A stretch of 64,000 bases of DNA from an uncultured Thermodesulfobacteriota bacterium (GCA_942491525.1 CALOBW010000030.1:291029-355028), one strand, 5' to 3'; positions 13,961 to 62,271 are shown, numbered from the stretch's first letter. Notes: generated by a model not told the origin, from the sequence alone. Program-made: numbers and translations.

Positions 13961-14694
13961 GCACAAGCAAAATCGAATGGACCGAAAGCACCTGGAACCC
14001 TACATCCGGATGCACAAAAATATCTACTGGCTGCAAAAATTGTTATGCCGAACGTATGGCCAAACGACTACAAGCAATGGGGATATCCAAATACAAGGAT
14101 GGATTCCAATTGGCTATACACCCAGAGGTACTCAACGAACCATTCTCATGGAAAAATCCCAAATTTGTCTTCGTCAATTCGATGAGTGATCTATTCCATG
14201 AAGATATGCCTTTAGAATATATCAAAAAAGTTTTTACAGTAATAAATGAAAACCCTAAGCATACATTCCAAGTCTTAACAAAGCGTGCTGAGATTTTAGA
14301 AGAATATTCACCTCATCTTAATTGGACAAAAAATATATGGATGGGGGTAACAGTTGAGGATCAGACCTGCGTATCACGCATAGATAACTTGAGAAAAACT
14401 TCCGCCACTGTAAAATTTCTATCAATGGAGCCACTACTAAGCAATATATCTGATATTAACCTAACAGATATCGATTGGGTTATAGTTGGAGGAGAATCTG
14501 GTCCTGGAGCCAGACCCATGAATGAAAGTTGGGTGCTAAACATCAAAAACCAATGCTCAGATTACAACGTACCATTCTTTTTTAAGCAGTGGGGTGGTGT
14601 TAACAAAAAAAAGGCAGGGCGACTACTATTGGGAAAAACTTGGGATCAAATGCCTATAACTCATCCCATAATGCAAAAAGAGGTACATTTTTAA
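13957..14694 (+). CDS. Phage Gp37/Gp68-family protein (DUF5131)
   Basis: The N-terminus MSTSKIEWTESTWNPTSGCTKISTGCKNCYAE matches the IEWT..TWNP..GC...GC..CYA consensus of PF07505 and gives a CX6CX2C cysteine triad. The gene sits in a ~0.95-kb AT-rich patch with host-atypical codon usage. Its start codon overlaps the upstream stop (ATGA). Confidence 0.7.
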   Translation: MSTSKIEWTESTWNPTSGCTKISTGCKNCYAERMAKRLQAMGISKYKDGFQLAIHPEVLNEPFSWKNPKFVFVNSMSDLFHEDMPLEYIKKVFTVINENPKHTFQVLTKRAEILEEYSPHLNWTKNIWMGVTVEDQTCVSRIDNLRKTSATVKFLSMEPLLSNISDINLTDIDWVIVGGESGPGARPMNESWVLNIKNQCSDYNVPFFFKQWGGVNKKKAGRLLLGKTWDQMPITHPIMQKEVHF

Positions 14695-30757: not shown

Positions 30758-31375
30758 ATGGCAAAGGTAATCAAGGAACCCAAGCAGAAGCGTTCAATCG
30801 CCAAACGCCGCATGATTATGGACACGGCGCGCAGGGTTTTCAGTGAACTGGGTTTTGATGCCATGAACTCCAATCAGCTGGCCAAGGCGGCTGGAGTTTC
30901 AACCGGAACCTTCTACTGCTACTTTGAGAATAAGGAAGACCTGCTCTATGCCATCATCCGGGATCATCTGGACTTCCTCTTCGAGGGCCACTTCTCAAAA
31001 GTGCCGGAAAAGAAAAGCGTTGATTTTTATGCCGCCACCCGCTCCTATGTTGCGGCGGTCTTTGAAGCTTTCAGCAAAGACCCGGCACTATTCCGCTTCG
31101 TCATCTCCAGGCGATTCACCGACCCCAAGATCTGCAGCATCTTCACCGAAGTCAGTACCCGCGAGGCAGAGAACGCGGCCAAGATGCTCAAGCTCTACGA
31201 TGATGATAAGAACATCAACGACTACAACCTGGCCGGGCAGATCGTCATCGGCCTGGTCAACTCCAGCGCCCGGGCCCTCTATGTTGACCTGACCATCAAC
31301 CGCGATCCGGATGATTTCATTGACGAGGTCACCCGCACGATCCTGGGCATGCTCAAGACCCCCAAACCGGACTAA
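30758..31375 (+). CDS. TetR-family transcriptional regulator
   Basis: The HTH is KRSIAKRRMIMDTARRVFSELGFDAMNSNQLAKAAGVSTGTFYCYFENKEDL. GC is lower than in the flanks. It is followed 32 nt downstream by a membrane-protein gene with an AGGAG RBS. Confidence 0.75.
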   Translation: MAKVIKEPKQKRSIAKRRMIMDTARRVFSELGFDAMNSNQLAKAAGVSTGTFYCYFENKEDLLYAIIRDHLDFLFEGHFSKVPEKKSVDFYAATRSYVAAVFEAFSKDPALFRFVISRRFTDPKICSIFTEVSTREAENAAKMLKLYDDDKNINDYNLAGQIVIGLVNSSARALYVDLTINRDPDDFIDEVTRTILGMLKTPKPD

Positions 31376-31407: not shown

Positions 31408-32247
31408 ATGGAACCAACCAACACTACCCTGATTATCGGCATTATCGTCTACACCTTTTTCACCCTCGGTCTGACGGAACTGTTCAGACGCAAACCCAAG
31501 CTGGGCGCCATCGTCTTCATCCTGGCACCGCTGACCTTCCCGCTCTGGGCTGAAAACCGTGACAGCTGGTTCGAGTGGGCCAAGATCCTGAGCGTGCTGC
31601 TGCCCACCGCCGTGCTGGGTTTCAACCGCTGGGCCAACTACTACAAGCCCGAGGGCAAGATCTGGGATATCCTGCGCAGCAAGGGCTTCCTCTGGTTCTT
31701 CTTCGGCATCCTGGCCCTCAACATCACCGAAGCCAGTTTGCGTGACTGGGAGCTGGGCAACTACCTGAACGCCCTGACCGGCTTCATCCTGGTGCTGACC
31801 ATCCCGTTTGCCGACAAGTTCTGGCGCTTCGACAAGGTCAACTTCGGCGAGCTGATCGTCGACTTCGGCAAGGGCTGGTGTCTGCTCTACACCACCTGGA
31901 ACGCCGCCTTCATCTACGGCGCCATTCCCGACGAGTTCGCCCTGGGCTTCGCCATCCTGATCGCCGCCGAAGTCTACTCCTTCGCCGGCCGCCCCGACCT
32001 CTACATCATGGCCCGAGTCTACACTCTAGCCATCTTCGTCCTGCACCTGGGCTGCTTCGACATCCCGGCCATCATGGACTCCTCGGCCTGGTACAACGCC
32101 GACGTTGTCCACTACTGGGGCGTCATCAACATCATCTTCGCCGTCGGCTATGTAATCTGGTACAACTGGCAGATGCACAGCGGCAAGGCTGAGAAATCTT
32201 TCCGCCACCCCAAGAGCTCTCCCGAAGCTCAGCTAGCGGCCGAATAA
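31408..32247 (+). CDS. Integral membrane protein of unknown function (~8 TM helices), probable TetR target
   Basis: The protein is hydrophobic and aromatic/Trp-rich, with no recognisable catalytic motif. It is co-oriented and almost contiguous with the TetR gene. Confidence 0.5.
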   Translation: MEPTNTTLIIGIIVYTFFTLGLTELFRRKPKLGAIVFILAPLTFPLWAENRDSWFEWAKILSVLLPTAVLGFNRWANYYKPEGKIWDILRSKGFLWFFFGILALNITEASLRDWELGNYLNALTGFILVLTIPFADKFWRFDKVNFGELIVDFGKGWCLLYTTWNAAFIYGAIPDEFALGFAILIAAEVYSFAGRPDLYIMARVYTLAIFVLHLGCFDIPAIMDSSAWYNADVVHYWGVINIIFAVGYVIWYNWQMHSGKAEKSFRHPKSSPEAQLAAE

Positions 32248-44186: not shown

Positions 44187-44780
44187 ATGCAGCACCTTAG
44201 CGCAATATTCCTGTTTGCCCTGAGCACCTCCATTACGCCGGGGCCCAACAACATCATGGTCATGACCTCCGGCCTCAACCACGGTCTGCGCAAGACCACG
44301 CCCCACTATCTGGGCATCTGTCTGGGTTTCCCGGCCATGGTGCTGGCCATCGGCCTCGGACTGGGCGCCATCTTCATGCAGCTGCCCATGCTGCATAAGA
44401 TCATCAAAATTGTCGGCATCGGCTACCTGCTCTACCTGGCCTGGCTGATCGCCAAGACCAAGCCCGAGCTGGCAGAAAGCGGCAAACCGCTGAGCTTCAT
44501 GCAGGCCGTGCTCTTCCAGTGGGTCAACCCCAAGGCCTGGATCATGGCCATGGGCGCGGTGGCCACCTACACCAGCCTGGACGGCAACATTCTAACTGAA
44601 GTCGCCATCATCACCGGCATCTATCTGCTGGTGCTCTTCCCGGCCGTCGGCAGCTGGTTCCTCTGCGGCTCGCGCCTGCAGCTGCTGATCAAGAGCCCGC
44701 GCCAGCAGCGAGCCTTCAACATCTGCATGGCCCTGCTGCTGGTAAGCTCGGTGCTGCCGATGCTCAGGAGCCAGTTTTAG
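44187..44780 (+). CDS. LysE/RhtB-family amino-acid exporter
   Basis: The signature TPGPNN and six TM helices fit the family. Confidence 0.8.
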   Translation: MQHLSAIFLFALSTSITPGPNNIMVMTSGLNHGLRKTTPHYLGICLGFPAMVLAIGLGLGAIFMQLPMLHKIIKIVGIGYLLYLAWLIAKTKPELAESGKPLSFMQAVLFQWVNPKAWIMAMGAVATYTSLDGNILTEVAIITGIYLLVLFPAVGSWFLCGSRLQLLIKSPRQQRAFNICMALLLVSSVLPMLRSQF

Positions 44781-46194
44781 GCAGACCCATGGCCCACTCG
44801 GCGACGGCCTGCGTGCTGACCCTGATGTTGCCCACCACGGCCGCGCCGCCCACACAGCCGCCTTCGCAGGCCATGACCTCCAGCAGGTTGCCGGGACACT
44901 TACCCCTGGCGTAGGCCTTCAAGATCTTCATCTTCTTGGAATCCAGGCCGTCCATCTGCACCGCATTGACGGTCGTCAGACTGGCCACGGCTGCGGCCAC
45001 CCCGCCGGCCACGGCAAAGCCGCGCGCCTCGGCTGATGGCAGAGTGGAGGGTATGAGCCCAGTGCAGGCCTCAACCTCGATGCCGGCAGCCACCAGCATG
45101 GCCCCCAGCTCCTCAAAGGTCAGCACATAACTAATTTCCGGATCAGCCATGCCCTCCTGGCGCTTAGCCACACAGGGCCCAATGAAGACCGTCACCGCAT
45201 CACTCTGTTCGGCTTTCACCAGAGACGCCGTATAGTGCATGGGGCTTGGCGTGGATGAAACGTAATCTTCAAGCTCGGGCAGATGCTTCCTGACCGCCTG
45301 CACATAGGCCGGGCAGCAGGAGGTGGTCAGAAAGGCCTGGCCCTCTGCCATCTTCTCGGCATGCTCGGCCGCCTCATGTTGGGCGGTCAAATCGGCGCCC
45401 AGAGCCACCTCAATCACCGATGAAAATCCCAGCTTAACAAGAGCCTCCATGATCTGCTCCAGTCTGCCCGGAAACTGACCGGCCACCGAGGGCGCCAGCA
45501 TGGCCACCACCGGTCTATCCTGCTGCATGCGCTCGAGCACATCGATCATCTGAGAGCGCTCCATAACCGCGCCGAAGGGGCAGTTGCGCATGCAGCGGCC
45601 GCAGCCGATACAGGCCTCGAAGTCGATCTCGGCCTTGCCGCCCGCATTCTTCTTGATGGCGTCCACCGGGCAGGCCTCCTCACAGGGCACCGGAATGTGG
45701 GTGATGACATGATAGGGACAGCTCTTGGCGCACTTGCCGCAGTTGCGGCACTTACCTGAGTCGATGTGGGAACGTCCATTGTCGAAGTGAATCGCGCCGA
45801 AGGGGCAGTTCTCCATGCAGGAGCGCGCCGTGCAGCCCTGGCAGGCCTCGGTCACCAGGTAGCGGCTGTCGACACAGCCCTTGCAGGCGATATCCAGCAC
45901 GGTCAGAATGTTGCCGCTCGGCTGCTTGCGTTCAAGGGCCGCCTCGGCATAGGTGCTGAGGGGCGTGAAGTCGTCGACCTCGTCCTCCACTGCGGCGCCC
46001 AGGCCGGCCATGCAGCGATAGCGCAGAACAGCGCGGTCCTTGTAGAGGCAGCAGCGGAAACTCTCGCCGTTCTTGGGGCGCATCTCATAGGGAATGCGCT
46101 CGACGCCTGCGACTAGATTGCCCTCCATGTGGGCGCGGGCCAGGCGGATCAGAACTTCACGGCGCAGACGGGTGGCATTGTTGTGGGTCTGCAT
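44764..46194 (-). CDS. [FeFe]-hydrogenase-like protein (H-cluster domain with two N-terminal 2x[4Fe-4S] ferredoxin modules)
   Basis: H-cluster motifs are present in variant form: L1 TSCCPAYV, L2 GPCVAKRQE, L3 EVMACEGGCVGG. Four CxxCxxCxxxCP motifs lie upstream. Confidence 0.75.
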   Translation of the reverse strand: MQTHNNATRLRREVLIRLARAHMEGNLVAGVERIPYEMRPKNGESFRCCLYKDRAVLRYRCMAGLGAAVEDEVDDFTPLSTYAEAALERKQPSGNILTVLDIACKGCVDSRYLVTEACQGCTARSCMENCPFGAIHFDNGRSHIDSGKCRNCGKCAKSCPYHVITHIPVPCEEACPVDAIKKNAGGKAEIDFEACIGCGRCMRNCPFGAVMERSQMIDVLERMQQDRPVVAMLAPSVAGQFPGRLEQIMEALVKLGFSSVIEVALGADLTAQHEAAEHAEKMAEGQAFLTTSCCPAYVQAVRKHLPELEDYVSSTPSPMHYTASLVKAEQSDAVTVFIGPCVAKRQEGMADPEISYVLTFEELGAMLVAAGIEVEACTGLIPSTLPSAEARGFAVAGGVAAAVASLTTVNAVQMDGLDSKKMKILKAYARGKCPGNLLEVMACEGGCVGGAAVVGNIRVSTQAVAEWAMGLPKTGS

Positions 46195-46460: not shown

Positions 46461-47630
46461 CTAGATATACTGAATAATTGTCTCTTTCAGGTAACGCTCT
46501 TCAAGCGTCGCCATGATGCGTTTGATGATGTTGCGCCTGATCTCCAGATCGAGCGGCAGATTGGGATCCTGATGGGCATCATTGATGCGCGTGCCCACCA
46601 GAAACTCGATATGGTCGCTGTCCAGCAGCAGATTGGCCAGCTTGCCGGCCGGATCATCCGGAATAGTCCCCTGCTCCAGATACTGGGCCATGCGCGTCAG
46701 CGTGAGGATGCCCTCGGTCACCAAATCGAGCCCCTCCATCTCGGAGAGCGGCGGCAGATCGCCGAAGCCGCTCAGCACGGTCTGCATGTCGCGGTTAAGC
46801 TCGCGGCCCACAATGTTGGCCGTGGTGCCGCCGCAGATCGCCTTGCGCCCTTCAAAGTGGTCCAGCTTGGTGGCAATCTCACGGTCGCGGCTCTGATCAT
46901 AGGGCGGACCCGAAAGCACCAAGGTGCGCCGAGGCTTCCTGAAGTAGAAGACCGCGCAGGTGATGTCATCCATGGCCCGGCACTGCGGCTCATGGCGCTC
47001 GGCCTCATCCACAATGGCCTGGGCCAGCTCGCGCCCCGAGATGTTGCTGTCCTTGGCCACCAGCTGCTCAACAAAGCTGGAGCAGCCCTCGACGCGCCAG
47101 CCCAACTTCCAGCGGTCGCTGCCCAGGCCGGCCTGGGAGACGCCGTCCGAAAAGACGATCAGGCGGTCCTCGGGCCGGGTGCAGATCTCGGAGACCTGCA
47201 GGGCGCGGTCCTTCCAGCGCGCCGTCATCATGGTGCGGCGGCTGATGTCCACGGCCTTACCGTCGCGGATCAGGATGTAGTTGGGGTTGCCCTGCTCCAC
47301 GATGCGGGTCTTGCCGTGGATGATGCAGTCCACGATCGTGAAGGTGGCATAGGATATCTTGCGCACCTGGCAGATGGGCAGCGAGTCCATGATGACCTCG
47401 CTGGCGCCCACAATGTTGCGGTTGGCCGCCGCAAACTTGAGCGCCATGGTGCCGGTCATGTTGGCCAGGATGTTGGCCTTGACCCCGCTGCCCAGACCGT
47501 CCGAAAGCACCGCGATGATGCGGTCCTCGGCCGGAATCTTGCGCGAGAAGAAGGCGTCGCCGCAGATGTTCTGGGAGTGCTTGTGACGCTGGGCGCAGTC
47601 AACCTCGACGAAGAGCGAACTGGTCAGCAT
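46461..47630 (-). CDS. PP2C-type (SpoIIE/RsbU-like) serine/threonine phosphatase
   Basis: The PPM metal-binding Asp blocks are present (CGDAFF; VLSDGLGSG; VFSDGV; DDITC). Its start overlaps the HydS stop by 1 nt. Confidence 0.75.
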   Translation of the reverse strand: MLTSSLFVEVDCAQRHKHSQNICGDAFFSRKIPAEDRIIAVLSDGLGSGVKANILANMTGTMALKFAAANRNIVGASEVIMDSLPICQVRKISYATFTIVDCIIHGKTRIVEQGNPNYILIRDGKAVDISRRTMMTARWKDRALQVSEICTRPEDRLIVFSDGVSQAGLGSDRWKLGWRVEGCSSFVEQLVAKDSNISGRELAQAIVDEAERHEPQCRAMDDITCAVFYFRKPRRTLVLSGPPYDQSRDREIATKLDHFEGRKAICGGTTANIVGRELNRDMQTVLSGFGDLPPLSEMEGLDLVTEGILTLTRMAQYLEQGTIPDDPAGKLANLLLDSDHIEFLVGTRINDAHQDPNLPLDLEIRRNIIKRIMATLEERYLKETIIQYI

Positions 47631-49324
47631 CAGTCATCCTCCGGCGTAAAGTCCTCCGGCCCGTAATCATGGGCGATGGAGCTTAAGAGGATTTCGGTAT
47701 CAGCCATGTGCTCGCCCAGGCGGCAGGCGATCTCCTGCACGGTGACCATATTTTTCTGAATCACCTGGGCGGCGCGCCGCGCGATCTGCTCGCGCTTCAT
47801 CTCGCTCTGGGTCACATCCTGCACGATCACGCCGATGGTCTGATGGTGCTCGATACTGAAGATGGTGACGTTGAGCAGGCGCTCATCCAGGGGCAGACGC
47901 TCGCGGCTGATGTCCAGGCCGGTGCGCACGGCCGCCTCCAGGATGTCCGGGAAGGGCAGGATCTTGGTCAGCACCGCGCCAGCCATGCCGGGCAGCACGT
48001 CAAAGGCCAGCTGCTCGCCGAACATCTCGGCAAAGGGTTTGTTGCACTCGATGACCCGCAAGTTCTTGTCGGCAATCACCACGCCGGACGGGATGCAGCG
48101 CAGCAAGGCATTGGCCTTTTTCTGGGCCTGATTGCGCATGTAGGAGACGCACATGGCCGGCTCGGCGTTGCCCAGCAGCAAGGCGCGCGCAAAGTGGCGG
48201 CAACTGTCGTAGCCGCAGCCGCCGCAGTTCATCTCATCATGGACACTCTCCTTACCGACCCGGCGCAGAGCCTCCTTGATTTCGCGCTCACTGATCTCAC
48301 GCGGCTCCTCCACCAGCAGGGGCAGCTCATCAACCAAAGAGATGGACGCTTTGGAAGACACCTGCTCGGGCCACTCGGTGCGCCGGCGCACCTCAAGAAT
48401 TGAACTGAAGGTGCTGCAGCTCATGGATGGACCCTGAACACAGCCGCCGCTGCAGGCCAGACACTCTATGAAAACAGGTACCTGAACATCGGCGGGGCTG
48501 AAATTCTTGAGCGCCTGCTCCATCTGGGGCAGACCCGAGACGCTCAGCAGTTCAACCCTCCGGTCGAGGCCGTGGGCCCGGATGGTCTCATTCATGCCGC
48601 CCTCGATCGGATAGATGGCGCCTTCACGGGCAGTCCTGGGATAGAAGCCCTTGCTGCCAATCAGGCCGGCCGGCTCAATTGAGCTCTCACGCCACCAGCG
48701 TTTGAGGTCATCAAAGGTCAGGGCCACATCGATCTCCTGACGTTCGGCTTCCAGCTTCTTGGCCACGCAGGGCCCGATGAAGACCACGCGCACGTCGGCC
48801 TCATGCTTGAGCAGGCGGGCATGGGCCAGCAGCGGCGAGGCCATGGGTGTGACACAGTCGGCCAGCTCCGGCAGGAAGCGGCCGATATAGGTCACGGCGG
48901 CCGGACAGGCGCTGGAGATCAGAACGCCGCGCTGCATTGTGTTAAGCGTTTCGGCCAGACTGGCGGAGACGGCTTCGGCGCCCAGGGCGGTCTCACTGAC
49001 CCGGGCAAACCCCAGGCTCTGCAGACCGGCCACCATCTGCTCGATGCTCAGTTCGGGCCAGGCGCTGACCCAGCTGGGGGCCAGAGAGACAACCACCGGA
49101 CGCGCCTCATCCAGCATGCGTTTGACGCGCTTGATGTCGTCGCGCACCTTCTTGGCCTTGGCCGGACAGACGCTGACGCAACTGCCGCAGGCCACACAGA
49201 GCTCGGGAATTACAGCGGCATGCCCGTCATGCACGCGGATGGCCTTGACCGGGCACTGACGCACGCACTTGTAACAGTCCTGGCACTCGGCTTCGGCGGT
49301 AAATACGGGATACTGAACATTCAT
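47630..49324 (-). CDS. Sensory [FeFe]-hydrogenase-like protein (HydS/HfsB-type) with a C-terminal 4-Cys cluster and PAS domain
   Basis: An N-terminal 2x[4Fe-4S] ferredoxin module is followed by the H-domain, with L1 altered to SSACP (the proton-relay Cys is replaced by Ala), L2 GPCVAKKLE and L3 ECLACSGGC. CGGCGYDSC and a PAS fold (GVVIADKNLRVIECNKPFAEMFG) follow. Confidence 0.75.
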   Translation of the reverse strand: MNVQYPVFTAEAECQDCYKCVRQCPVKAIRVHDGHAAVIPELCVACGSCVSVCPAKAKKVRDDIKRVKRMLDEARPVVVSLAPSWVSAWPELSIEQMVAGLQSLGFARVSETALGAEAVSASLAETLNTMQRGVLISSACPAAVTYIGRFLPELADCVTPMASPLLAHARLLKHEADVRVVFIGPCVAKKLEAERQEIDVALTFDDLKRWWRESSIEPAGLIGSKGFYPRTAREGAIYPIEGGMNETIRAHGLDRRVELLSVSGLPQMEQALKNFSPADVQVPVFIECLACSGGCVQGPSMSCSTFSSILEVRRRTEWPEQVSSKASISLVDELPLLVEEPREISEREIKEALRRVGKESVHDEMNCGGCGYDSCRHFARALLLGNAEPAMCVSYMRNQAQKKANALLRCIPSGVVIADKNLRVIECNKPFAEMFGEQLAFDVLPGMAGAVLTKILPFPDILEAAVRTGLDISRERLPLDERLLNVTIFSIEHHQTIGVIVQDVTQSEMKREQIARRAAQVIQKNMVTVQEIACRLGEHMADTEILLSSIAHDYGPEDFTPEDD

Positions 49325-49332
49325 ACTGACTC

Positions 49333-49557
49333 CTAATAACCGCTCAGCAGATCGATGAGGGTGCCCTCATCGATGCCGGAGAAAAGCTTGCCGTCGATGC
49401 GGATGTTGGGGCCGCTGCAGCACTCGCCTTCGCAGCGGCAGCCGCGCAGCTCGATCTCAAGCTGATGCGCCTGCTGATACTGCTCGATAACTTCCAGATT
49501 GCGCTGATTGCCGCGGGCAAAGCAGGAGCTGCCCATGCAGATGGAGATCTTCTTCAT
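49333..49557 (-). CDS. Thioredoxin-like [2Fe-2S] ferredoxin (HfsA-like)
   Basis: MKKISICMGSSCFARG...CRCEGECCSG fits the family. It is translationally coupled to rex (4-nt overlap). Confidence 0.6.
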   Translation of the reverse strand: MKKISICMGSSCFARGNQRNLEVIEQYQQAHQLEIELRGCRCEGECCSGPNIRIDGKLFSGIDEGTLIDLLSGY

Positions 49558-50204
49558 TTGCCGCGCTCCAGCTGATGCTTGATCTTGACCGAGAGTTCGG
49601 CCAGGCCCGAAGCCAGATCTTCGCGGCGCACGATCACCCCGCGGGGCACCTGCAGCTTGACCGGGGTAAAGTTCCAGATGCCCAGCACACCGTTGCCCAC
49701 CAGAGTGTCGCAGACATCCTGCGCCACGGGCGAGGGCACGGTCAGCACGGCCAGATGCACGTGCAGGCGTTCGGCCAGATTGGGCAGTTTAGTCAGGTCA
49801 AAAACCGGCACACCGTGCAGCTCGGATCCGATCAGGTCCGGGTTGGTGTCAAAGGCGGCCACAATTCTGAGGCCGAACTCGCGGAAACCGGCATAGCCCA
49901 GCAGAGCCTGCCCCAGATTGCCGGCGCCCACCAGAAAGGCATCCGTGAAGTTGTTCCAGCCCAGATAGTCTTCGATGGCGCTGATCAGGTCCTCGACCGC
50001 ATAACCGACCCCGGTCTTGCCCACGGCCTGCGTGATCTCCAGATCCTTCTTGACCACAATCTGCTGCAGCTCAAGTTCACGGGCCAGCCAGGAGGACGAG
50101 ACCACATCCTGACCCGAATCCTTCAACCCCTGCAGGGCCCTCAGATAGAGCGGCAGCCTTCTGATGGATGGCAGTTTGGCGACTTGACGTTCATAGTTTG
50201 ACAT
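49554..50204 (-). CDS. rex: Redox-sensing transcriptional repressor Rex
   Basis: The N-terminal wHTH (IRRLPLYLRAL) and the Rossmann motif GAGNLG are present. Confidence 0.8.
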   Translation of the reverse strand: MSNYERQVAKLPSIRRLPLYLRALQGLKDSGQDVVSSSWLARELELQQIVVKKDLEITQAVGKTGVGYAVEDLISAIEDYLGWNNFTDAFLVGAGNLGQALLGYAGFREFGLRIVAAFDTNPDLIGSELHGVPVFDLTKLPNLAERLHVHLAVLTVPSPVAQDVCDTLVGNGVLGIWNFTPVKLQVPRGVIVRREDLASGLAELSVKIKHQLERGK

Positions 50205-53303: not shown

Positions 53304-53339
53304 CAAAAAAGCCCTGTTCAATCGCAGATTGAACAGGGC
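53304..53339 (-). terminator. Rho-independent terminator of the hypB-X-hypA operon
   Basis: An 11-bp perfect stem GCCCTGTTCAA/TTGAACAGGGC with a 7-nt loop is followed, in the minus sense, by U6GU. Confidence 0.7.
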
Positions 53340-53371
53340 TGGTAATTTTCTCTGCCGGCGGGGCAGCTAAC

Positions 53372-53734
53372 TCATTGTTGCCCGGACACTTTGTCGCCCA
53401 CCATGATCTGCTTGATCATGATATCCTTGCCATTGAGCGCTTCCAGCTGCGTATTAGAACAGGCCGGGCAGCTGAAATCGTTCTCATAGGCCCTGAACTC
53501 CTGATTGCAGGCCAGACAGCGCGCCATACCGGGAACGACCTCGATCTCCAACTCAGTATCCTGCATGAAGGTCTTGTGCACGGCGGCCGGATAGCAGGCC
53601 TCCAGATAGGAGGGCACCACGCCCGAAAGCTCGCCCACCTCGAGAACTATCTTTTCGACAGTCGCAAACTTTTCGACCTGCTTTATGCCTTCCACAGTCC
53701 GGATAATCATCTTCACGATGCCCGCCTCATGCAT
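53372..53734 (-). CDS. hypA: Hydrogenase nickel-insertion protein HypA
   Basis: The N-terminal MHE nickel site and the zinc CxxC...CxxC (CLACNQ...CPACS) are present. Confidence 0.85.
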   Translation of the reverse strand: MHEAGIVKMIIRTVEGIKQVEKFATVEKIVLEVGELSGVVPSYLEACYPAAVHKTFMQDTELEIEVVPGMARCLACNQEFRAYENDFSCPACSNTQLEALNGKDIMIKQIMVGDKVSGQQ

Positions 53735-53739
53735 AACGG

Positions 53740-56409
53740 TTACTGCTCACCCTTAAGCGCACGTTTAATTGTTCCGCCCGCCACCTTGACACTTCTGGTT
53801 ACAGCGTAGGGCGCCACCTTCAACGCGATCTTTTCAAAAGCAACGGCGTCATCATCAAACTTGCGGATCAACTTGACAGCCTCGAACTCACACTTGAGCA
53901 CGCACTGGCCGCAGCCGATGCACATATCCTGGTTAAGAGTAACAGCACCGCAGCCAAGGCAGCGCTCGGTCTCCTTCTTGAGCTGCTCCTCGGTAAAGGT
54001 CATGCGGGAATCTTTAAAGCTCTTAACCTGCTCTGAGCTGTGACCTGCACGCTGACGCCGCATGTTGTCGAAGCCCTCAATAACCACATTCTGCTTGTCA
54101 AAAGCCTTATAGTTACGGCGGTCGCGGCCCAGGGTCTGGCTCTGTCCGGGCCAGACCGCCCGATGGATGGAGATGGCCCCCTGCTTGCCGGCGGCAATGG
54201 CGTCGATGGCAAACTTCGGCCCGCTGAAAACGTCGCCGCCGGCAAAGATACCATCGGCGCCGGTGGCATAGGTGAAGCTGTCAGCCACCACCGTGCCGTT
54301 GCGGTTCAGGTCAACCGCCGTATCCTTGAGCATCTCGCCCCAGGCAATTGCCTGGCCGATGGAGACCAGCACGGCGTCAGCGTCGACAATCACGGTTTCA
54401 TCCTCATTGAAGCGGGGCGCAAACTGACCCTGATCATTGAATACCGCAACGCATCTCTTAAACTCGACACCCTTGACCTTGCCCTTTTCCAGGATGATGC
54501 GTTTGGGTCCCCAGCCGTTGTTGATCTCAATGCCTTCGGCGCATGCCTCCTCGATCTCTTCGGGCAGGGCCGGCATCTCATTGGCGCCTTCAAGGCAGTA
54601 CATGCCAACCGTCTCGGAACCGACGCGGACAGCCGTACGCGCCACATCGATGGCCACATTGCCGCCGCCGATCACCACAACCTTGCCCTTCAACTTGACC
54701 TCTTTGCCGAGGTTGACATCACGCAGGAAGCTGACGCCGGAGATGGCACCCTCCTCACCCTCAATGTTGAGTTTCCGGCCAGCCTGGGCGCCGATGGCAA
54801 GGTAGAAGGCCTCAAAACCATCCTTGCGCAGGGCTTCAATGGTCACATCCCTGCCGACTTCAACGCCGGTCCTGAACTCGACCCCCAGCACACGCAGGAT
54901 CTCGATCTCCGCCTTGACCACATCTTTTTCCAGCCTGAAGGATGGAATGCCGAGGGTCAGCATGCCGCCCAGCTGCTCCTCCTTCTCAAACACGGTTACC
55001 TGATAACCTTCGGCCGCCAGATAGTAGGCGCAGCTCAAGCCCGCCGGACCGCTGCCGACGACCGCGATTTTCTTGTCATATTGATTAAGCTTCTCGGGCA
55101 CGAAGCGGCACTCCTCGTTCAGCTCCATGTCGGCGATGAACTTTTTGATCTCATCGATCGCGATCGGGTCATCCAGATCACCGCGGGTGCAGACCGATTC
55201 ACAGGCGTGGGGACAGATGCGTCCGCAGACGGCCGGGAAGGGATTCTCTCGCTTGATCAGCTCCAGCGCCTCCATGTACCTGCCCTGGGAGGCAAACTTG
55301 ATATAGGCCTGAACGCCGATATTGGCCGGGCACTCGGCCTTGCAGGGCGCGGTTCCGCTCTCATGCACATCGCTGCGGTTTTCACGGTAGTCCATGTTCC
55401 AGTACTTCTCACCCCAGATACGGTCGCGGGGCGTCGGCGTGGGTTTGGTCTCGATGGGGGTCTTGGAGCAGAGTTTCTGCCCGAGCTTGAGCGCATTGGT
55501 GGGGCAGTACTCCACGCACAGGCCGCAGGCCGCACAGTTTTCGGTGACCAGTTCCGAGACAAAGTTGGAGCGGATCACATCCGGGGCATTCATCATGGCC
55601 GCCGTGCGGATCGAGAAGCAGGAGCAGGAGCAGCAGTTGCAGATGGCCGGAATCTCCTCATTGCCCCAGAGGTTGGGAGCCTCATGGACATAGCCCTTCT
55701 CCTCGCAGCGCCTGAAGATTTCAAGCGCCTCTTCGCGTGTGATCTCACGGCCCTTGCCGGTGTTGATGTTGTACTCGGCCGTCTCTCCCAGCGAGACGCA
55801 GACCTCATGCTCCAGATGGCCGCAGCCCTCGTCCATATGGCGGCGCGTGGCGCGGCACATACAGTTGCCCACGGCAAAACGGTCATACTTGTCCATCCAG
55901 TAGGAGATCTTCTCCCACTCCTTGACGCCTTCAACATCCTTGATGGCCTCTTCAGCCGGCAGCACCCGCACAAGGCCGGCGCCCTTGGTCAGCAGCGGGG
56001 CCAGCGGCGCGATGCGGATGCGGGTGTACTCCTCAAAGGCCCGGCCGATATCGGGATGCTTCTCAAAGAGCTCCGTGTTGGCCACCATCAGTTCCAGCAC
56101 CCCCGGGGCAAAGAGCTCGATCATGAAGGTCTCTCTGCCGTCCCGGTTGAAGACCTTGCAGACGCCCACATCGGCCAGCTGCAGCGCCAGCCGGTGCGCT
56201 TCATCAACGGGTTTGCCGCACTTGGCCGCGATCTCCTCGATGGTTTTGAACTTTCTCAACTCCATGCCGAGACCGACCTCGGCCATCTCATCGGTTACCA
56301 CGCAGGCCAGACCGTAATATTCCGGTGCGTTCTCATCGATCCTGTTGATCAGGGCCGCCGGCCCGCTGATCATCTTGGCCAACTCCACGATTTTCTTCCT
56401 TAATGCCAT
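53740..56409 (-). CDS. Large Fe-S flavoprotein: novel N-terminal Cys/His-rich domain plus a ferredoxin, fused to a GltD/NfnB-type FAD/NAD(P)H oxidoreductase with a C-terminal 2x[4Fe-4S] ferredoxin
   Basis: The GltD-like core has a CKAECPANIGVQ...AVCGRICPHACESVCTRG Fe-S pair and GXGXXG KKIAVVGSGPAGLSCAYYLAAEG..EKEEQLGG. The N-terminal ~330 aa carry CMCRATRRHMDEGCGHLEHEVC, ICNCCSCSCF and a CAACGLCVEYCP ferredoxin. The C-terminus has CLGCGAVT..CIGCGQCVLKCE. There is no HdrA-type CxGCRD...CSxVCC motif. It sits 6 nt upstream of hypA and 40 nt downstream of hypB. Confidence 0.65.
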   Translation of the reverse strand: MALRKKIVELAKMISGPAALINRIDENAPEYYGLACVVTDEMAEVGLGMELRKFKTIEEIAAKCGKPVDEAHRLALQLADVGVCKVFNRDGRETFMIELFAPGVLELMVANTELFEKHPDIGRAFEEYTRIRIAPLAPLLTKGAGLVRVLPAEEAIKDVEGVKEWEKISYWMDKYDRFAVGNCMCRATRRHMDEGCGHLEHEVCVSLGETAEYNINTGKGREITREEALEIFRRCEEKGYVHEAPNLWGNEEIPAICNCCSCSCFSIRTAAMMNAPDVIRSNFVSELVTENCAACGLCVEYCPTNALKLGQKLCSKTPIETKPTPTPRDRIWGEKYWNMDYRENRSDVHESGTAPCKAECPANIGVQAYIKFASQGRYMEALELIKRENPFPAVCGRICPHACESVCTRGDLDDPIAIDEIKKFIADMELNEECRFVPEKLNQYDKKIAVVGSGPAGLSCAYYLAAEGYQVTVFEKEEQLGGMLTLGIPSFRLEKDVVKAEIEILRVLGVEFRTGVEVGRDVTIEALRKDGFEAFYLAIGAQAGRKLNIEGEEGAISGVSFLRDVNLGKEVKLKGKVVVIGGGNVAIDVARTAVRVGSETVGMYCLEGANEMPALPEEIEEACAEGIEINNGWGPKRIILEKGKVKGVEFKRCVAVFNDQGQFAPRFNEDETVIVDADAVLVSIGQAIAWGEMLKDTAVDLNRNGTVVADSFTYATGADGIFAGGDVFSGPKFAIDAIAAGKQGAISIHRAVWPGQSQTLGRDRRNYKAFDKQNVVIEGFDNMRRQRAGHSSEQVKSFKDSRMTFTEEQLKKETERCLGCGAVTLNQDMCIGCGQCVLKCEFEAVKLIRKFDDDAVAFEKIALKVAPYAVTRSVKVAGGTIKRALKGEQ

Positions 56410-56448
56410 TGTTTCCTCCCTCGTATCTATGTTTAAATCAAATCCGTT

Positions 56449-57120
56449 TCAGTCATCTTTCCATGACTTCACTTCACTCTTCAGCCAGTCTGCCCATTCA
56501 TCGATGCCTTCGCCGGTACGGGCTGAGATTGGAATAATCTTAATCCTGGGATTCAGTTTGCCGGCCCGCTCCCTGACCGCGTTGAGATCAAAATCAAAAT
56601 GCGGCAGAACGTCTAGCTTGTTGATCAGCAGAACATCGCAGATCTGAAACATCAGGGGATATTTCAGCGGCTTGTCATCGCCCTCGGGTACCGACAGGAT
56701 CATCGCATTTTTGACAGATCCGGTATCAAACTCGGCCGGACAGACCAGATTGCCGACATTTTCCAGAACAACAAGATCCAGTTCATCGACACCCAGCCCG
56801 CCAAGTCCCTGACGGGTCATATCGGCATCCAGATGGCACATGCCGCCGGTGTGCAGCTGGATAACTTTGACGCCGGCATTGGAAATCGTGACCGCATCCA
56901 CGCTGGAATCGATATCCGCCTCCATTATTCCGATGCGAAGGTCATCCTTAAGCGAACTGATGGTCTGAACCAGGGTGGTGGTTTTACCGGCCCCGGGCGA
57001 ACTCATAAGATTTAGCAGGAACGTGCCCTTGCTCTTCAACTCTGCACGCAGGCGTTCCGCATCCTGATTATTATCCGCAAAAACACTCTGCTTAATGTCC
57101 AATACGCGAAAATCTTTCAT
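56449..57120 (-). CDS. hypB: Hydrogenase nickel-incorporation GTPase HypB (no His-rich N-terminus)
   Basis: The G1 motif SSPGAGKTT and the CH metal site (GGMCHLDA) are present, with homology to the HypB/UreG/CobW family. Confidence 0.85.
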   Translation of the reverse strand: MKDFRVLDIKQSVFADNNQDAERLRAELKSKGTFLLNLMSSPGAGKTTTLVQTISSLKDDLRIGIMEADIDSSVDAVTISNAGVKVIQLHTGGMCHLDADMTRQGLGGLGVDELDLVVLENVGNLVCPAEFDTGSVKNAMILSVPEGDDKPLKYPLMFQICDVLLINKLDVLPHFDFDLNAVRERAGKLNPRIKIIPISARTGEGIDEWADWLKSEVKSWKDD

Positions 57121-57131
57121 AGATCCCCTTA

Positions 57132-57701
57132 TTAATCCGACTGTTTTTTGAGTCGCTCTTGCAGGAGGGCAATGCTGTGGTCAGCCCACTCGATATACAT
57201 GTTGAAAATGCGAAAACCGAAATCCACGGTCAGCTCCCAGTAGAAGAAATCATTCGAGGGAACTTCATAAGCCGAGAGCATCCCATCAACATTCTGGTAG
57301 GATTGCTGCAGCCGCGCTCGCTTGATTTCCGCCAGCTCACGGAACCGTTTAATAGAGTGCAGAAGCTCCTCGTCCGGAATTTTTGCGGCAAAGAAGACCT
57401 TGGACAGATATGGCAGGCGCTGGGCGAAATGGGGTTCCTCGCCATAGTCGACGAGCCAGTTGAAGAGCGCCTCCTCGCCGGCCGGTGTGATCGAGAAGAG
57501 TTTCTTGGTCGGACGGGAGTCCTGTTCTTCGCGCCGTTGCGTAACATAGCCATCGACGAGCAGGGCATTCAGTTCCCGGTAGATCTGGCTTTGCTGGGCC
57601 GAGAAAAAAAACTTCAAACTGCCGTCAAACAGTTTGTAGATGTCATAGCCTGACATCTCCTTGTAACTGACCAATCCGAGTATGGACATTCTAAGCGACA
57701 T
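57132..57701 (-). CDS. PadR-family transcriptional regulator
   Basis: The N-terminal wHTH (ILGLVSYKEMSGYDIYKLF...SQIYRELNAL) fits PadR. Confidence 0.8.
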   Translation of the reverse strand: MSLRMSILGLVSYKEMSGYDIYKLFDGSLKFFFSAQQSQIYRELNALLVDGYVTQRREEQDSRPTKKLFSITPAGEEALFNWLVDYGEEPHFAQRLPYLSKVFFAAKIPDEELLHSIKRFRELAEIKRARLQQSYQNVDGMLSAYEVPSNDFFYWELTVDFGFRIFNMYIEWADHSIALLQERLKKQSD

Positions 57702-57877
57702 ATCTCACCCTTATTTACAGCAGAATACTCTACATGTGATATATATAACATGTATAAACAACGCAACCACTATTCCACCTCCGGATCACAGACAGAACAT
57801 CAAACCAGACTGACGGGCAGTTTTCGCCCAGGACACGCGGATCAGAACAACTTCAACTCAGGCGAATATCATCAGCA

Positions 57878-58214: not shown

Positions 58215-58784
58215 TCATCCGATATAAACATAAAAGACATAAAACCACACCACAACCAGTGGAGAGATGATATATATAGCAATGAGCAATAAATCCTGGA
58301 TACTAACCTCCTGGTGACTCACAACCGTATTTGCATCTTCGTCCCAGTATGTCGTCTTCGTCTTTTGTAGATAAAAGAAAGATGACCCCTGTGCGATATA
58401 ATCGACAACTGGCAATCCAAGCCCTTGCCCATAAAACCAGAGAATAAACTTCCGTCTCAGGGCTTGAATGTAGGATAATTCACTGCCGTCTTTATTGGTA
58501 ACCCTGATGTTAAATAACGCCTTTCCAATTGTAGTACCAAATACAGCAAACATCGCAGCTTCCCAAAAATTATAAAAAAAGTGCAACGCAAGAATGAAGG
58601 TAAACTTAGAATGGTCCTGAACCGGATAATGTAATACCCAAGCACCTCCAAGCACAATCAAGAAAAAGAAATATATATCAGCCCCCCGGGCCATACATCT
58701 TATAAACGGTCTAATCTGTGGACCTGATGGAACATACTCTATATCTGAAGCTAACTTAGCTTGCGAACGTTTCTTGCTGCTCAT
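58215..58784 (-). CDS. RDD-family membrane protein
   Basis: GTTIGKALFNIRVTNKDGSELSYIQALRR matches the RDD signature, and TM helices are present. It lies in low-GC DNA. A GAGGG RBS precedes the start MSSKKRSQ. Confidence 0.55.
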   Translation of the reverse strand: MSSKKRSQAKLASDIEYVPSGPQIRPFIRCMARGADIYFFFLIVLGGAWVLHYPVQDHSKFTFILALHFFYNFWEAAMFAVFGTTIGKALFNIRVTNKDGSELSYIQALRRKFILWFYGQGLGLPVVDYIAQGSSFFYLQKTKTTYWDEDANTVVSHQEVSIQDLLLIAIYIISPLVVVWFYVFYVYIG

Positions 58785-58885
58785 TAAATAACAACCCTCC
58801 ATACTTCTTTTATTTACCGATTGTACATCAACGCCACACATGTACGCACTGGGTCAGGTCTTGCGTTTTGCCACTATTCTTCAAA

Positions 58886-60053: not shown

Positions 60054-62126
60054 CTATTTCAAATTCCAGGCAGTATCAAAACCATCCTTGGTGGCATTGG
60101 CGATACGGCCGATCTGCTTGGCGTCACCGATGGCGTAGACGCGCTCAAACTTGCCTTTAAGCTCCTCGACCAGGGCGTTGTTGGATCTGACGCCCACAGC
60201 CAGCACAACCTGATCAGCCGGGCGCTCAATTGAAGAGCCGTCCTTGGTGCTCTCGAGGGTGATGTTATCAGGCCCGATGTTCATCAGCTTATGACCGGGG
60301 ATGAACTCGGGGGCGTACTGCTTGAGGCGCATCATGGCGTCATCAAAGTTCTGGTGATAGGCGCCGGGGCCAATCTCATCCATCATCTCGACGATTGTGA
60401 TCTGATTGCCGTCCTCGGCCAGCTTCTCGGCGGTCTCGAGGCCGGTCATGCCGGAGCCGATCACAGCCACCTTCTTGCCGCTAAGTTTGATGTCACCGTT
60501 CAGGATCTCGGTGATGGTGCAGACGTGAGCCTGGTCATGTCCGGGGATGGGCGGCTTGACGGCCGAGCCGCCGGTGGCCACGATGATGGCGTAGGGGTCA
60601 AGCTCCTCAATCATCTTGAGGTCGGCGTTCTGATCGAAACAGAACTGGGCGCCCTCACGCATGGCGGCGTTCTCCAGATCGTTGAAGCACCAGTTGATCT
60701 TCTCCTTCTTGGGCGGCTTGTTGGCCAGCTGCAGCTGTCCGCCGACTTCATGATGGCGCTCGAGGACCACGGTCTCGAAGCCGCGCTCGGCCAGCACTTC
60801 GGCGGCACTCAGGCCCGCCGGACCAGCACCGACCACGACCACCTTGCGGCCCTGGCCGTCCTTGGCCGGATGGGTTGTCTCGGCCTCGCGGCCCAGGCGC
60901 GGATTGACGGCGCACTCCATGGGCAGGCACTGACGGGCGTTGATGTTCATGGATTCGAAGCACCAGAGGCAGCAGATGCAGCGTTTGATCTCATCTTCAC
61001 GGCCCTGCTCGGCCTTGTTGGCCCAGTGCGGGTCACAGACCTGGGAGCGGCCCATGCAGACAAAGTCCTGCACGCCCTCCTTGAGCTGGTCCTCGGCCTG
61101 CTGGGGCGAGCGCACCAGGTTGGCGGCCAGGACCGGAATATTAACGGCCTCCTTGACGGACTGGGCCAGGTTCTTGCGCCAGCCCGGTTCAAACGAGGTG
61201 GGCTCGAGCCAGTAGTTCATGGTCTCATAGGTGGCGGATGTTACGTCGATGGCGTCCACGCCGGCCTGCTCAAGACGGCGGGCGATCTCGACGCCCTCTT
61301 CCAGCTCGATGCCGCAGTCGGTCTCGCCGAGGCAGCGGTAGTACTCGTCGACGGCCAGGCGCACCACGATGGGGTAGTCGGGGCCGCACTCGTTTCTAAC
61401 GCCCTCGATGATCTCGAGCAGAAAGCGCATGCGATTCTCAAGCGAGCCGCCGTACTCGTCGCTGCGCTTATTGGTGCGGGTGCTGAGGAACTGCTGAATC
61501 AGATAGCCGTGGGCGGCGTGAATCTCAACGCCGTCGGCACCGGCGGCCTTGGCGCGGCGGGCGCCCTGCACAAAGTCATTGACCAGCTTCTTGATCTCGC
61601 GCTGCTTGAGCGCGCGGGTCTTCTGCTTGAGGTGGCCGCAGGGCACGTCGGAAGCGGAGACAACTGAGGGAGCCCAGACCTTCTCATAGAACCACTCGGT
61701 GGCCGGCACCAGTTTGGGGAAGATCTTCCAGAAACCGGGCCAGACCTTGCCGACCCCCAGCATGACCGGCCAGAACATGACCATCAGCGAGAGGTTCTGG
61801 CGGCCAGGGTGGTGCAGCTGGATCATGATCTTGGCGCCGTGGCTGTGGATGCGGTCCACCATGACGCTGAGCGGTTTGATGTGGCTCTCCTTGCTGACCG
61901 AGAGCTGGCGCGGCGCGGTGGCGCCGTGGTAGTCATTGACGCGGGTGATGCCGGGCATGATCAGGCCGCAGCCGCCCTTGGCCCGCTCTTCATAGTAGTT
62001 CATGACCTGTTCGGACGGGGTGCCGTCAAAGTTGGCCATGCCGATCTCGAGCGGCGGCAGCACAACCCTGTTCTTCAAAACGAGTTTGCCGATCCGGCCC
62101 TCGGAAAATAGATTCTGATAACTCAT
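60054..62126 (-). CDS. Old-Yellow-Enzyme-family FMN oxidoreductase fused to an FAD/NAD(P)-binding domain (2,4-dienoyl-CoA reductase / enoate reductase-like)
   Basis: An AGGAGG RBS precedes MSYQNLFSEG. The OYE TIM barrel has HAAHGYL and a 4Fe-4S Cys cluster (CICCLWCFES...C). The C-terminal domain has Rossmann GAGPAGL and GSGMTGLE motifs. A ~60-aa hydrophobic insertion (LSLMVMFWPVMLGVGKVWPGFW) sits within the barrel. Confidence 0.8.
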   Translation of the reverse strand: MSYQNLFSEGRIGKLVLKNRVVLPPLEIGMANFDGTPSEQVMNYYEERAKGGCGLIMPGITRVNDYHGATAPRQLSVSKESHIKPLSVMVDRIHSHGAKIMIQLHHPGRQNLSLMVMFWPVMLGVGKVWPGFWKIFPKLVPATEWFYEKVWAPSVVSASDVPCGHLKQKTRALKQREIKKLVNDFVQGARRAKAAGADGVEIHAAHGYLIQQFLSTRTNKRSDEYGGSLENRMRFLLEIIEGVRNECGPDYPIVVRLAVDEYYRCLGETDCGIELEEGVEIARRLEQAGVDAIDVTSATYETMNYWLEPTSFEPGWRKNLAQSVKEAVNIPVLAANLVRSPQQAEDQLKEGVQDFVCMGRSQVCDPHWANKAEQGREDEIKRCICCLWCFESMNINARQCLPMECAVNPRLGREAETTHPAKDGQGRKVVVVGAGPAGLSAAEVLAERGFETVVLERHHEVGGQLQLANKPPKKEKINWCFNDLENAAMREGAQFCFDQNADLKMIEELDPYAIIVATGGSAVKPPIPGHDQAHVCTITEILNGDIKLSGKKVAVIGSGMTGLETAEKLAEDGNQITIVEMMDEIGPGAYHQNFDDAMMRLKQYAPEFIPGHKLMNIGPDNITLESTKDGSSIERPADQVVLAVGVRSNNALVEELKGKFERVYAIGDAKQIGRIANATKDGFDTAWNLK

Positions 62127-62271
62127 AGTTCCTCCTTTTATACATGGCGAGTAGCCACTCACCCTCATAGCCAAATTAGTTGCATCATGCAAGCAGATTC
62201 CAGACGCATCCCGGCAAACTTAACATCAAATAGTTAATTTAACAAACCAAGATGGGTCAAATTTTACATTA

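Follow-up and report, generated by a model that had tools for sequence, protein, structure and literature searches.

A padR-hypB-hypA operon around an IsrA-like iron-sulfur flavoprotein with a candidate nickel site

Genes and borders of the operon

Four minus-strand genes in the window (the whole 64-kb stretch of DNA analyzed) are arranged in the order padR (57132-57701), hypB (56449-57120), a gene for an 889-residue protein (53740-56409) and hypA (53372-53734), followed by a terminator. A preliminary description of the window had listed the last three ORFs at these positions, with hypB and hypA bracketing the 889-residue protein, and had given the gaps between them as 40 and 6 nt; the spacing is indeed short, but the correct figures are 39 nt between hypB and the 889-residue gene and 5 nt between the latter and hypA. 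The strong terminator reported after hypA is likewise present. Located at 53310-53340 on the minus strand, ~30 nt past the hypA stop codon, this intrinsic terminator has a 14-bp stem (seven G-C pairs), a 3-nt loop and a TTTTTTG tail, and it closes the operon.

The padR gene, which the preliminary description did not include, encodes a 189-residue PadR-family transcriptional regulator (PF03551, 45.9 bits; PF10400, 49.4 bits). With padR only 11 nt 5' of hypB and in the same orientation, the cluster has the appearance of a four-gene operon, of which padR is probably the first gene. PadR is also found directly upstream in the two closest homologs of the 889-residue protein, at 75% and 71% identity (L081 and L082/L083). 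A palindrome, TACATGT-N10-ACATGTA (57731-57754), was located by a repeat search and by direct reading 30-53 nt 5' of the padR start codon, where it overlaps an AT-rich, -10-like stretch, and is a candidate PadR operator.

The two chaperones had been identified from a HypA MHE start and CxxC pairs and from a HypB GTPase with a CH site, an assignment upheld by scores that pass the PF01155 and TIGR00073 cutoffs. HypB (223 residues) reaches equivalog level (TIGR00073, 245.2 bits versus a cutoff of 121.2) and is a short-type nickel-metallochaperone GTPase that lacks an N-terminal His-rich or CxxCGC extension. Its G-domain CH...C metal site, formed by C95, H96 and C127, is intact, and these residues do not vary among the 32 HypB proteins encoded at homologous loci, whose identity to the HypB of the window is 63-74%. 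The nickel metallochaperone HypA (120 residues; PF01155, 104.4 bits versus a cutoff of 28.9) possesses the N-terminal MHE nickel site and a zinc site made up of the CxxC pairs C73/C76 and C89/C92. The MHE sequence is found in 61 of the 61 HypA proteins that adjoin homologs of the 889-residue protein and the two CxxC pairs in all 60 complete ones. Against TIGR00100, the model for hydrogenase-maturation HypA, the score of 78.8 is under the equivalog cutoff of 88.1, as is that of another HypA from a homologous locus (82.9).

A motif search of the 64-kb window found no [NiFe]-hydrogenase large-subunit motifs (RxCGxCxxxH / DPCxxCxxH), in agreement with the earlier statement that no structural gene for this enzyme lies alongside, and 1.3 Mb of flanks around 80 homologs contained no motifs of the large subunit, HypC or HypD. 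Neither in the window nor beside the 80 homologs is there a [NiFe]-hydrogenase maturation cluster, that is, a large subunit, hypCDEF or a maturation protease. The operon has the same two chaperones that insert nickel into [NiFe]-hydrogenase, with the MHE and zinc sites of HypA and the CH...C site of HypB intact, but the presumed client here is a module of an Fe-S flavoprotein.

Architecture of the flavoprotein and its relation to IsrA

In the 889-residue protein, an FAD/NAD(P)H core resembling NfnB and GltD is combined with four cluster motifs of the ferredoxin type, a winged helix and a module rich in Cys and His, all encoded on the minus strand. The matches to PF14691, PF07992 and Fer4 models bear out its initial reading as a GltD/NfnB-like core with ferredoxin modules. 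The FAD/NAD(P)H core (aa 447-741; 54187-55071) matches PF07992 (Pyr_redox_2) with 103.6 bits, and the solved chains nearest to it are 9bov_A (E = 3.7e-97), 8oh5_C (1.3e-91) and 9n5u_A (NfnA; 1.6e-88), with further matches to 4ylf_B and 5jca_L (NfnB) at about 2e-64. An Fe-S domain of the dihydropyrimidine dehydrogenase domain II type, with two [4Fe-4S] clusters (aa 353-432; 55114-55353; PF14691, Fer4_20, 75.7 bits), contains the invariant cysteines C356, C360, C395, C399, C403 and C407. The N-proximal 4Fe-4S ferredoxin motif (aa 289-308; 55486-55545; PF00037), in which C292, C295, C298 and C302 are invariant, has PDB profile matches to polyferredoxins only, and the C-terminal ferredoxin motif (aa 817-853; 53851-53961), with PF14697 (Fer4_21) and PF12837 (Fer4_6) matches at about aa 825-853, contains the invariant cysteines C817, C820, C830, C833, C836 and C840.

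Residues 1-288 have no Pfam or NCBIfam match, and the unassigned N-terminal domain of the preliminary description measures about 285 rather than ~330 residues. It consists of a winged-helix fold (aa ~28-100; 56110-56328), a linker and a Cys/His-rich alpha/beta subdomain (aa 138-286; 55552-55998) that is the candidate metal (nickel) site; both Cys/His strings quoted earlier from this region are present in the protein. No PDB relative was found for the fold of this N-module, and its Cys-rich part resembles no solved Fe-S domain, in fold or by profile, including the HdrA/SudA-like ferredoxin domains that had been considered as an ordinary explanation for it.

In its published features, rather than by alignment, the 889-residue protein resembles IsrA (VUZ27132.1), the putative isoprene reductase of Acetobacterium wieringae ISORED-2 around which Kronen et al. 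described a family and its 'clade 9' homologs in 2023 (PMC10134865), and we assign it to this clade on that basis. Both proteins are ~900 residues long and begin with ~270-300 residues that contain no database domain; the CxC pairs at 180/182 and 254/256 of IsrA, which are part of its Cys-rich 'cluster V' site, correspond to 183/185 and 257/259 here, and a Fer4 motif at 289-300 in IsrA corresponds to that at 289-308. Both also contain PF14691, PF07992 and a C-terminal Fer4, and both are encoded with hypA immediately downstream and hypB adjacent. IsrA homologs are found in anaerobic Firmicutes, Spirochaetes and other groups. The isr operon differs in having two hypA genes and a separate N-module ferredoxin, whereas the window has one hypA and the PadR regulator. 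Moreover, the published site is a Cys6 site, whereas the subtype to which the 889-residue protein belongs has the further invariant residues C196, H198, C260 and C262, and it is these that place the protein, probably, in a different subclade.

The same study found co-occurrence values of 0.73 for HypA and 0.56 for HypB over 988 homologs, noted that A. wieringae ISORED-2 has hypA and hypB in the isr operon and lacks [NiFe]-hydrogenase and hypCDEF, and put forward the N-terminal Cys cluster as a candidate site for nickel supplied by HypA/HypB, the first appearance of the idea that the N-module is a new nickel enzyme (PMC10134865). The site is hence not 'previously unrecognised', as the preliminary description had it. 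IsrA is induced along with catalytic activity, and even for IsrA the reduction of isoprene or another unactivated C=C bond is inferred; in a Pelotomaculum enrichment given isoprene, hypA was up about 373-fold and hypB about 585-fold. Neither biochemical characterization nor proof of the metal was found for the family in the literature searched, which extends to mid-2026, and here as in that literature nickel is inferred from the chaperones, the sole basis for the identity of the metal in this family.

Conserved chaperone linkage and candidate metal ligands

A census of gene neighborhoods shows that the linkage of this protein family to hypA and hypB is strongly conserved. In close (type A) homologs, of which the nearest to the 889-residue protein are P0122 (75% identity) and P0123-P0125 (71-72%), 59 of the 70 informative genome loci have hypA as the next gene downstream, and 28 of 68 have hypB alongside. 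Two sister subtypes sampled from metagenome loci show the same association, with hypA in 27/27 and hypB in 17/23 loci of type B and in 10/17 and 6/12 loci, respectively, of type C. The order hypB-X-hypA or X-hypA, where X is the homolog, recurs in Clostridia, Spirochaetota, Bacteroidota and other groups, the genes lying 0-60 nt apart. Conservation of this kind across loci and subtypes speaks against the suggestion that the flavoprotein is an operon passenger.

The N-module is also found as a stand-alone protein of ~360 residues. One such protein (P0328; L164/L165) is encoded between hypB and hypA and a second (P0318; L169) directly precedes hypA, while two others have no hyp neighbors. The presence of stand-alone N-modules between hypB and hypA suggests that the chaperones act on the N-module and not on the flavoprotein core.

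Several departures from the common gene order are found. Adjacent hypA is missing in 11 of the 70 close homologs (about 16%, each with enough downstream DNA), including one of the two closest relatives, at 71% identity (L082/L083), in which TspO takes the place of hypA. Every invariant Cys and His is nonetheless kept: the hypA-linked and hypA-less close homologs differ only at position 101 (Ala versus Val). In four loci without adjacent hypB (L030, L038, L041 and L063), hypA is followed by a MinD/CooC-like ATPase with a GCxC motif. HGD-D or double-cubane-like genes recur beside some homologs, and a separate regulator of the PadR, GntR, LysR or TetR type is found in the operon and in related loci.

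The Cys/His subdomain contains the motifs C183-x-C185-R, G-C196-G-H198, C204, H242 and C257-N-C259-C260-x-C262-x-C264, so that nine Cys and two His of the N-module are invariant in addition to the 16 Cys of the ferredoxin-type cluster motifs. The C183/C185 and C257/C259 pairs are invariant in 72 homologs and likewise in alignments A1 and A2. Because the sister subtypes lack C196, H198, C260 and C262 yet remain hyp-linked, the shared core is reduced to C183, C185, C204, H242, C257, C259 and C264. The family is large, an N-module profile retrieving 725 clusters (50% identity) at E <= 1e-30, and has many members in anaerobes of gut and sediment.

A proposed nickel-dependent reductase and its alternatives

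Taken together, we consider it reasonably probable that the padR-hypB-isrA-like-hypA operon encodes a cytoplasmic IsrA-family reductase and the two proteins that supply it with nickel. Electrons from NAD(P)H, and perhaps from ferredoxin as well, would enter the NfnB/GltD-like FAD module, from which four ferredoxin-type [4Fe-4S] clusters would relay them to the N-terminal Cys/His-rich module. The latter would hold the catalytic metal centre, loaded with nickel by the GTPase HypB and by HypA, with the nickel probably inside an Fe-S cluster or adjoining one. The substrate reduced there would be small and probably hydrophobic or unsaturated, and PadR would sense the same compound.

More tentatively, the N-module may itself be the catalytic part of a nickel enzyme of a new class. 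Its fold is unlike any solved one, and dedicated HypA and HypB, or HypA and a CooC-like ATPase, would insert a Ni-(Fe-S) centre, held by the seven-residue conserved core, into a module that occurs both fused to an NfnB-like electron input and on its own; the site of the subtype in the window, with C196, H198, C260 and C262, would be an elaborated one. A conceptual analog is provided by CODH/ACS, matured by CooC/AcsF, where a dedicated NTPase inserts nickel in or next to a Cys- and His-ligated Fe-S cluster, and the CooC-like GCxC ATPase found after hypA in some homologous loci fits this comparison. The likeness is one of logic only, and neither sequence nor fold resembles those of CooS or ACS.

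A different metal is the alternative that survives best, albeit as a rather unlikely one. Zinc plays a structural part in HypA, and the CH...C site of HypB binds zinc as well as nickel; the chaperones might deliver zinc, cobalt or iron, or HypA might act as a structural or assembly partner, with the N-module holding an unusual Fe-S cluster of the Cys6 or double-cubane type. The HGD-D and double-cubane-like neighbors of some homologs and the sub-cutoff TIGR00100 score of HypA are in keeping with this, as is the resemblance to P-cluster or double-cubane sites remarked on by Kronen et al. (PMC10134865). Retention of the nickel-binding MHE in every linked HypA argues for nickel instead, and so does the replacement of HypB in some loci by the CooC-like ATPase. 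CooC is itself a nickel-insertion factor, and we know of no precedent for HypA/HypB maturing a nickel-free Fe-S site.

HypA and HypB are canonical hydrogenase and urease maturation factors, and about one in six close homologs lacks an adjacent hypA; moreover, the hydrogenase motif search in the source genome covers the 64-kb window. The pair might instead mature an ordinary nickel enzyme whose genes lie elsewhere in the genome ([NiFe]-hydrogenase, urease or CODH), with the flavoprotein as a passenger. We regard this as improbable, given that the hypB-X-hypA and X-hypA orders recur across phyla, in three subtypes and with stand-alone N-modules, that hydrogenase and hypCD motifs are absent from the 1.3 Mb of flanks and that A. 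wieringae ISORED-2 is without any [NiFe]-hydrogenase (PMC10134865).

Residues ~350-750 align with NfnB (the NfnI large subunit), the 8oh5_C chain and GltD at E values of 1e-52 to 1e-97, with the same Fer4_20 and Pyr_redox_2 arrangement, and YgfK-type models are also strongly matched. That the protein is simply an NfnB/GltD/YgfK-type subunit that transfers electrons within a larger complex (a transhydrogenase, glutamate synthase or selenate/xanthine-type reductase), with the hyp genes incidental, is nevertheless very improbable. All NCBIfam equivalog cutoffs are missed (for example, TIGR01316, 297 versus 472, and PRK12814, 369 versus 916), no NfnA, GltB or molybdopterin partner is nearby, and the NfnB/GltD/YgfK families lack the 285-residue N-module. 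Unlike NfnB and GltD, which have no nickel-chaperone linkage, the 889-residue protein has an extra N-terminal 340 residues and a C-terminal ferredoxin motif. Least probable of all is that the protein is mainly a redox-sensing regulator whose winged helix binds DNA while the Fe-S/flavin part senses the redox state, since its identity to real regulators is 6-17%, the operon and related ones already encode separate regulators, IsrA induction goes along with a catalytic activity and a 550-residue NfnB-like catalytic core is atypical of a sensor.

The operon in the window is mainly one more, rather divergent, example of the IsrA family, one that has a regulator of the PadR family; comparison across the family shortens the list of candidate ligands and points to the N-module as the chaperone client. 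The family may reduce unactivated C=C bonds beyond the reach of any known ene-reductase. If nickel is confirmed, a new nickel-dependent redox enzyme would be added to a very short list, and HypA/HypB would gain a second physiological client besides hydrogenase and urease.

The operon and its surroundings

ORF positions, domain scores and a motif search bear out the preliminary description of this operon, in which hypB, an 889-aa Fe-S flavoprotein gene and hypA are followed by a terminator and no [NiFe]-hydrogenase is present; its sole omission was padR, a PadR-family gene (57132-57701, minus strand) that comes first in gene order, 11 nt from hypB. The hypB homolog (56449-57120, minus; TIGR00073, 245 bits) has the C95-H96...C127 site, and the hypA homolog (53372-53734, minus; PF01155, 104 bits) begins with MHE and contains two CxxC pairs. 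The 889-aa ORF (53740-56409, minus), which encodes the IsrA-like protein, lies between them at distances of 39 and 5 nt, and a terminator with a 14-bp stem and T-run (53340-53310, minus) is found 3' of hypA. No [NiFe]-hydrogenase large-subunit motif was found across the whole window. The padR promoter region contains an inverted repeat, TACATGT-N10-ACATGTA (57731-57754, 30-53 nt upstream of padR), with perfect 7-bp arms and an AT-rich spacer, that may be a PadR operator; the spacer of this candidate is 10 nt, whereas that of the PadR consensus operator is 8 nt.

The IsrA-like protein comprises a Fer4 motif (aa 289-308), a Fer4_20 domain (aa 353-432), a Pyr_redox_2 FAD/NAD(P)H core (aa 447-741) and a C-terminal Fer4 motif, and the solved chains nearest to its NfnB-like FAD part are 9bov_A, 8oh5_C, 9n5u_A (NfnA) and NfnB. 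Residues 1-288, the Cys/His-rich N-module, match no Pfam or NCBIfam model. In both of the two nearest relatives (75% and 71% identity) padR is directly upstream, and one has hypA while the other has TspO in its place. The regulators of other subclades are of the GntR, LysR or TetR type, a variety that fits with diversified substrates.

Other genes of the window, for [FeFe]-hydrogenase-like proteins, a Rex repressor and an OYE/FAD enoate-reductase-like protein, point to a fermentative anaerobe as host. Four minus-strand genes look like a hydrogen/redox-sensing regulatory cluster: 44764-46194 encodes an [FeFe]-hydrogenase-like protein, 46461-47630 a SpoIIE-type phosphatase, 47630-49324 a PAS-containing, HydS-like sensory [FeFe]-hydrogenase homolog and 49554-50204 the Rex-type redox repressor. 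Located 3 kb upstream of the operon, the 712-aa OYE plus FAD/NAD(P) oxidoreductase (60054-62192, minus), of 2,4-dienoyl-CoA reductase/BaiCD architecture, adds another putative C=C reductase to the neighbourhood. GC content along the window ranges from 43% to 67%, which suggests patches of foreign DNA; third-position GC is 0.75-0.9 in most genes, 0.36 in a DUF5131 (phage Gp37/Gp68-like) gene (13957-14694, plus) and 0.40 in an RDD-family membrane protein gene (58215-58841, minus). Two adjacent paralogous lipoprotein genes (3690-5126 and 5544-6899, minus) have near-identical signal peptides (MKRFTT...LSGC), and a Pfam scan of the first (3690-5126) gave no match.

Linkage to hypA and hypB among homologs

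A profile of the N-terminal region (alignment A1) matched at least 572 loci in GTDB species representatives, and the best 80 of these were retrieved. Among these 80, counting only loci with a complete gene and sufficient downstream DNA, hypA lies immediately downstream of the isrA-like gene in 59 of 70 and hypB is adjacent in 28 of 68. The MHE start is kept in all 61 neighbouring HypA proteins and both CxxC pairs in all 60 complete ones; the neighbouring HypB proteins (n=32) share 63-74% identity with that of the window and retain C95, H96 and C127. The 1.3 Mb of DNA flanking the homologs contains neither a hydrogenase large-subunit motif nor one of HypC or HypD. The hyp linkage is thus conserved in flanks that lack these motifs, and it is therefore very unlikely that the flavoprotein is an operon passenger, one of the two options first considered.

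In four loci that lack adjacent hypB (L030, L038, L041 and L063), the gene after hypA encodes a MinD/CooC-like ATPase that carries a GCxC motif, and a pair of HGD-D/double-cubane-like genes comes next. This recurrent sub-architecture also takes in L064, L066 and L075; an unannotated ~250-aa protein can stand in for the ATPase, and a BcrAD_BadFG activase is present in some cases. The module seems to be tandemly duplicated in a Bariatricus sp. locus (L046, 10001-16655), where ~6 kb of DNA holds two isrA-like genes, both with a hypA of their own behind them, and hypB comes after the first isrA-like/hypA pair.

Conserved candidate ligands and stand-alone forms of the N-module

Across 72 full-length homologs, nine Cys (183, 185, 196, 204, 257, 259, 260, 262 and 264) and two His (198 and 242) of the N-module are invariant, and the ferredoxin-type cluster motifs account for a further 16 invariant Cys. 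An exhaustive profile search gave 725 clusters at E <= 1e-30 that fall into four motif types. Type A, that of the window protein, has CxCR..GCGH..C as first and CNCCxCxC as second motif; type B has ..GCG[DE]..C and CNC[NA]xxxC, and type C ..G[STD]G[DE]..C and CNCAxGVC, all three in proteins of ~900 aa. Type D, with a variable first motif and CNCCxCCC as the second, is a stand-alone form of ~360 aa. In 80 metagenome loci sampled for types B and C, after duplicate removal, hypA is adjacent in 27/27 and hypB in 17/23 type B loci, and in 10/17 and 6/12 type C loci, respectively. Types B and C are thus hyp-linked, so that C196, H198, C260 and C262 are dispensable for the linkage. The core common to all hyp-linked types is C183, C185, R186, C204, H242, C257, N258, C259, C264 and R268, and its six Cys are probably equivalent to the published Cys6 of IsrA.

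Stand-alone proteins of ~355 aa, consisting of the N-module and two Fer4 motifs, can also be hyp-linked. P0328 (L164/L165, 4302-6433) is found in the order PadR-AAA(MoxR-like)-VWA(CoxE)-Fer4-hypB-[N-module]-hypA, and P0318 (L169, 2256-3780) is followed by hypA; two others, P0346 and P0305, have no hyp genes as neighbours, giving 2 of 4 informative loci, a small sample; a further two loci were uninformative. The chaperone association can therefore persist without the flavoprotein core, and of the evidence so far these cases point most strongly to the N-module as chaperone client.

Relation to IsrA and a possible nickel centre

IsrA (VUZ27132.1), a putative isoprene reductase, is a 901-aa oxidoreductase from an isoprene-induced operon of Acetobacterium wieringae that also carries two hypA, hypB and a ferredoxin (Kronen et al. 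2023, PMC10134865). No domain is recognised in its first ~270 aa, its CxC motifs Cys180/182 and Cys254/256 lie within a Cys6 'cluster V', and it has Fer4 at 289-300, PF14691, PF07992 and a C-terminal Fer4 (PMC10134865). Every one of these features matches the window protein with a 3-residue offset, and we file the latter as an IsrA family member, assigned by published features rather than by direct alignment: a new member of a family that is known but biochemically uncharacterised. Neighbourhood co-occurrence for 988 'clade 9' IsrA homologs is 0.73 for HypA, 0.56 for HypB, 0.4 for DUF5692 and 0.21 for TetR (PMC10134865). The window has a TetR-family regulator gene (30758-31375, plus); the gene that follows (31408-32247, plus) encodes a membrane protein that matches DUF5692 in part. 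The two lie ~21 kb from the isrA-like gene.

A. wieringae has no [NiFe]-hydrogenase and no hypCDEF, and cluster V was proposed as a nickel site served by HypA and HypB (PMC10134865). The site that the preliminary description offered as possibly unrecognised is thus the subject of a hypothesis published in 2023, re-derived independently; we found no biochemical test of it in literature searched to mid-2026. In a Pelotomaculum enrichment given isoprene, hypA and hypB were induced ~373-fold and ~585-fold, respectively (two 2026 preprints). For the isr-operon ferredoxin, which is related to the stand-alone N-module proteins, no hyp association was reported (PMC10134865).

In the best-supported of the models, NAD(P)H would enter at the NfnB-like FAD, and electrons would pass along four [4Fe-4S] clusters to a centre in the N-module into which HypB and HypA would have inserted nickel; there a substrate, probably unsaturated, would be reduced. 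The identity of the metal as nickel, catalysis by the N-module and the nature of the substrate are inferred. The most serious competitor, unlikely but well ahead of the others, is that the N-module binds a metal other than nickel or has only an Fe-S site. That HypA and HypB serve a distant nickel enzyme is improbable, and a plain Nfn/GltD-type subunit slightly more so. A redox-sensing regulator is the least probable reading of the protein.

The hypB/IsrA-like/hypA feature is real and non-random, and whether a nickel-containing N-module defines a possible new class of nickel enzyme is a question that can be addressed by experiment.
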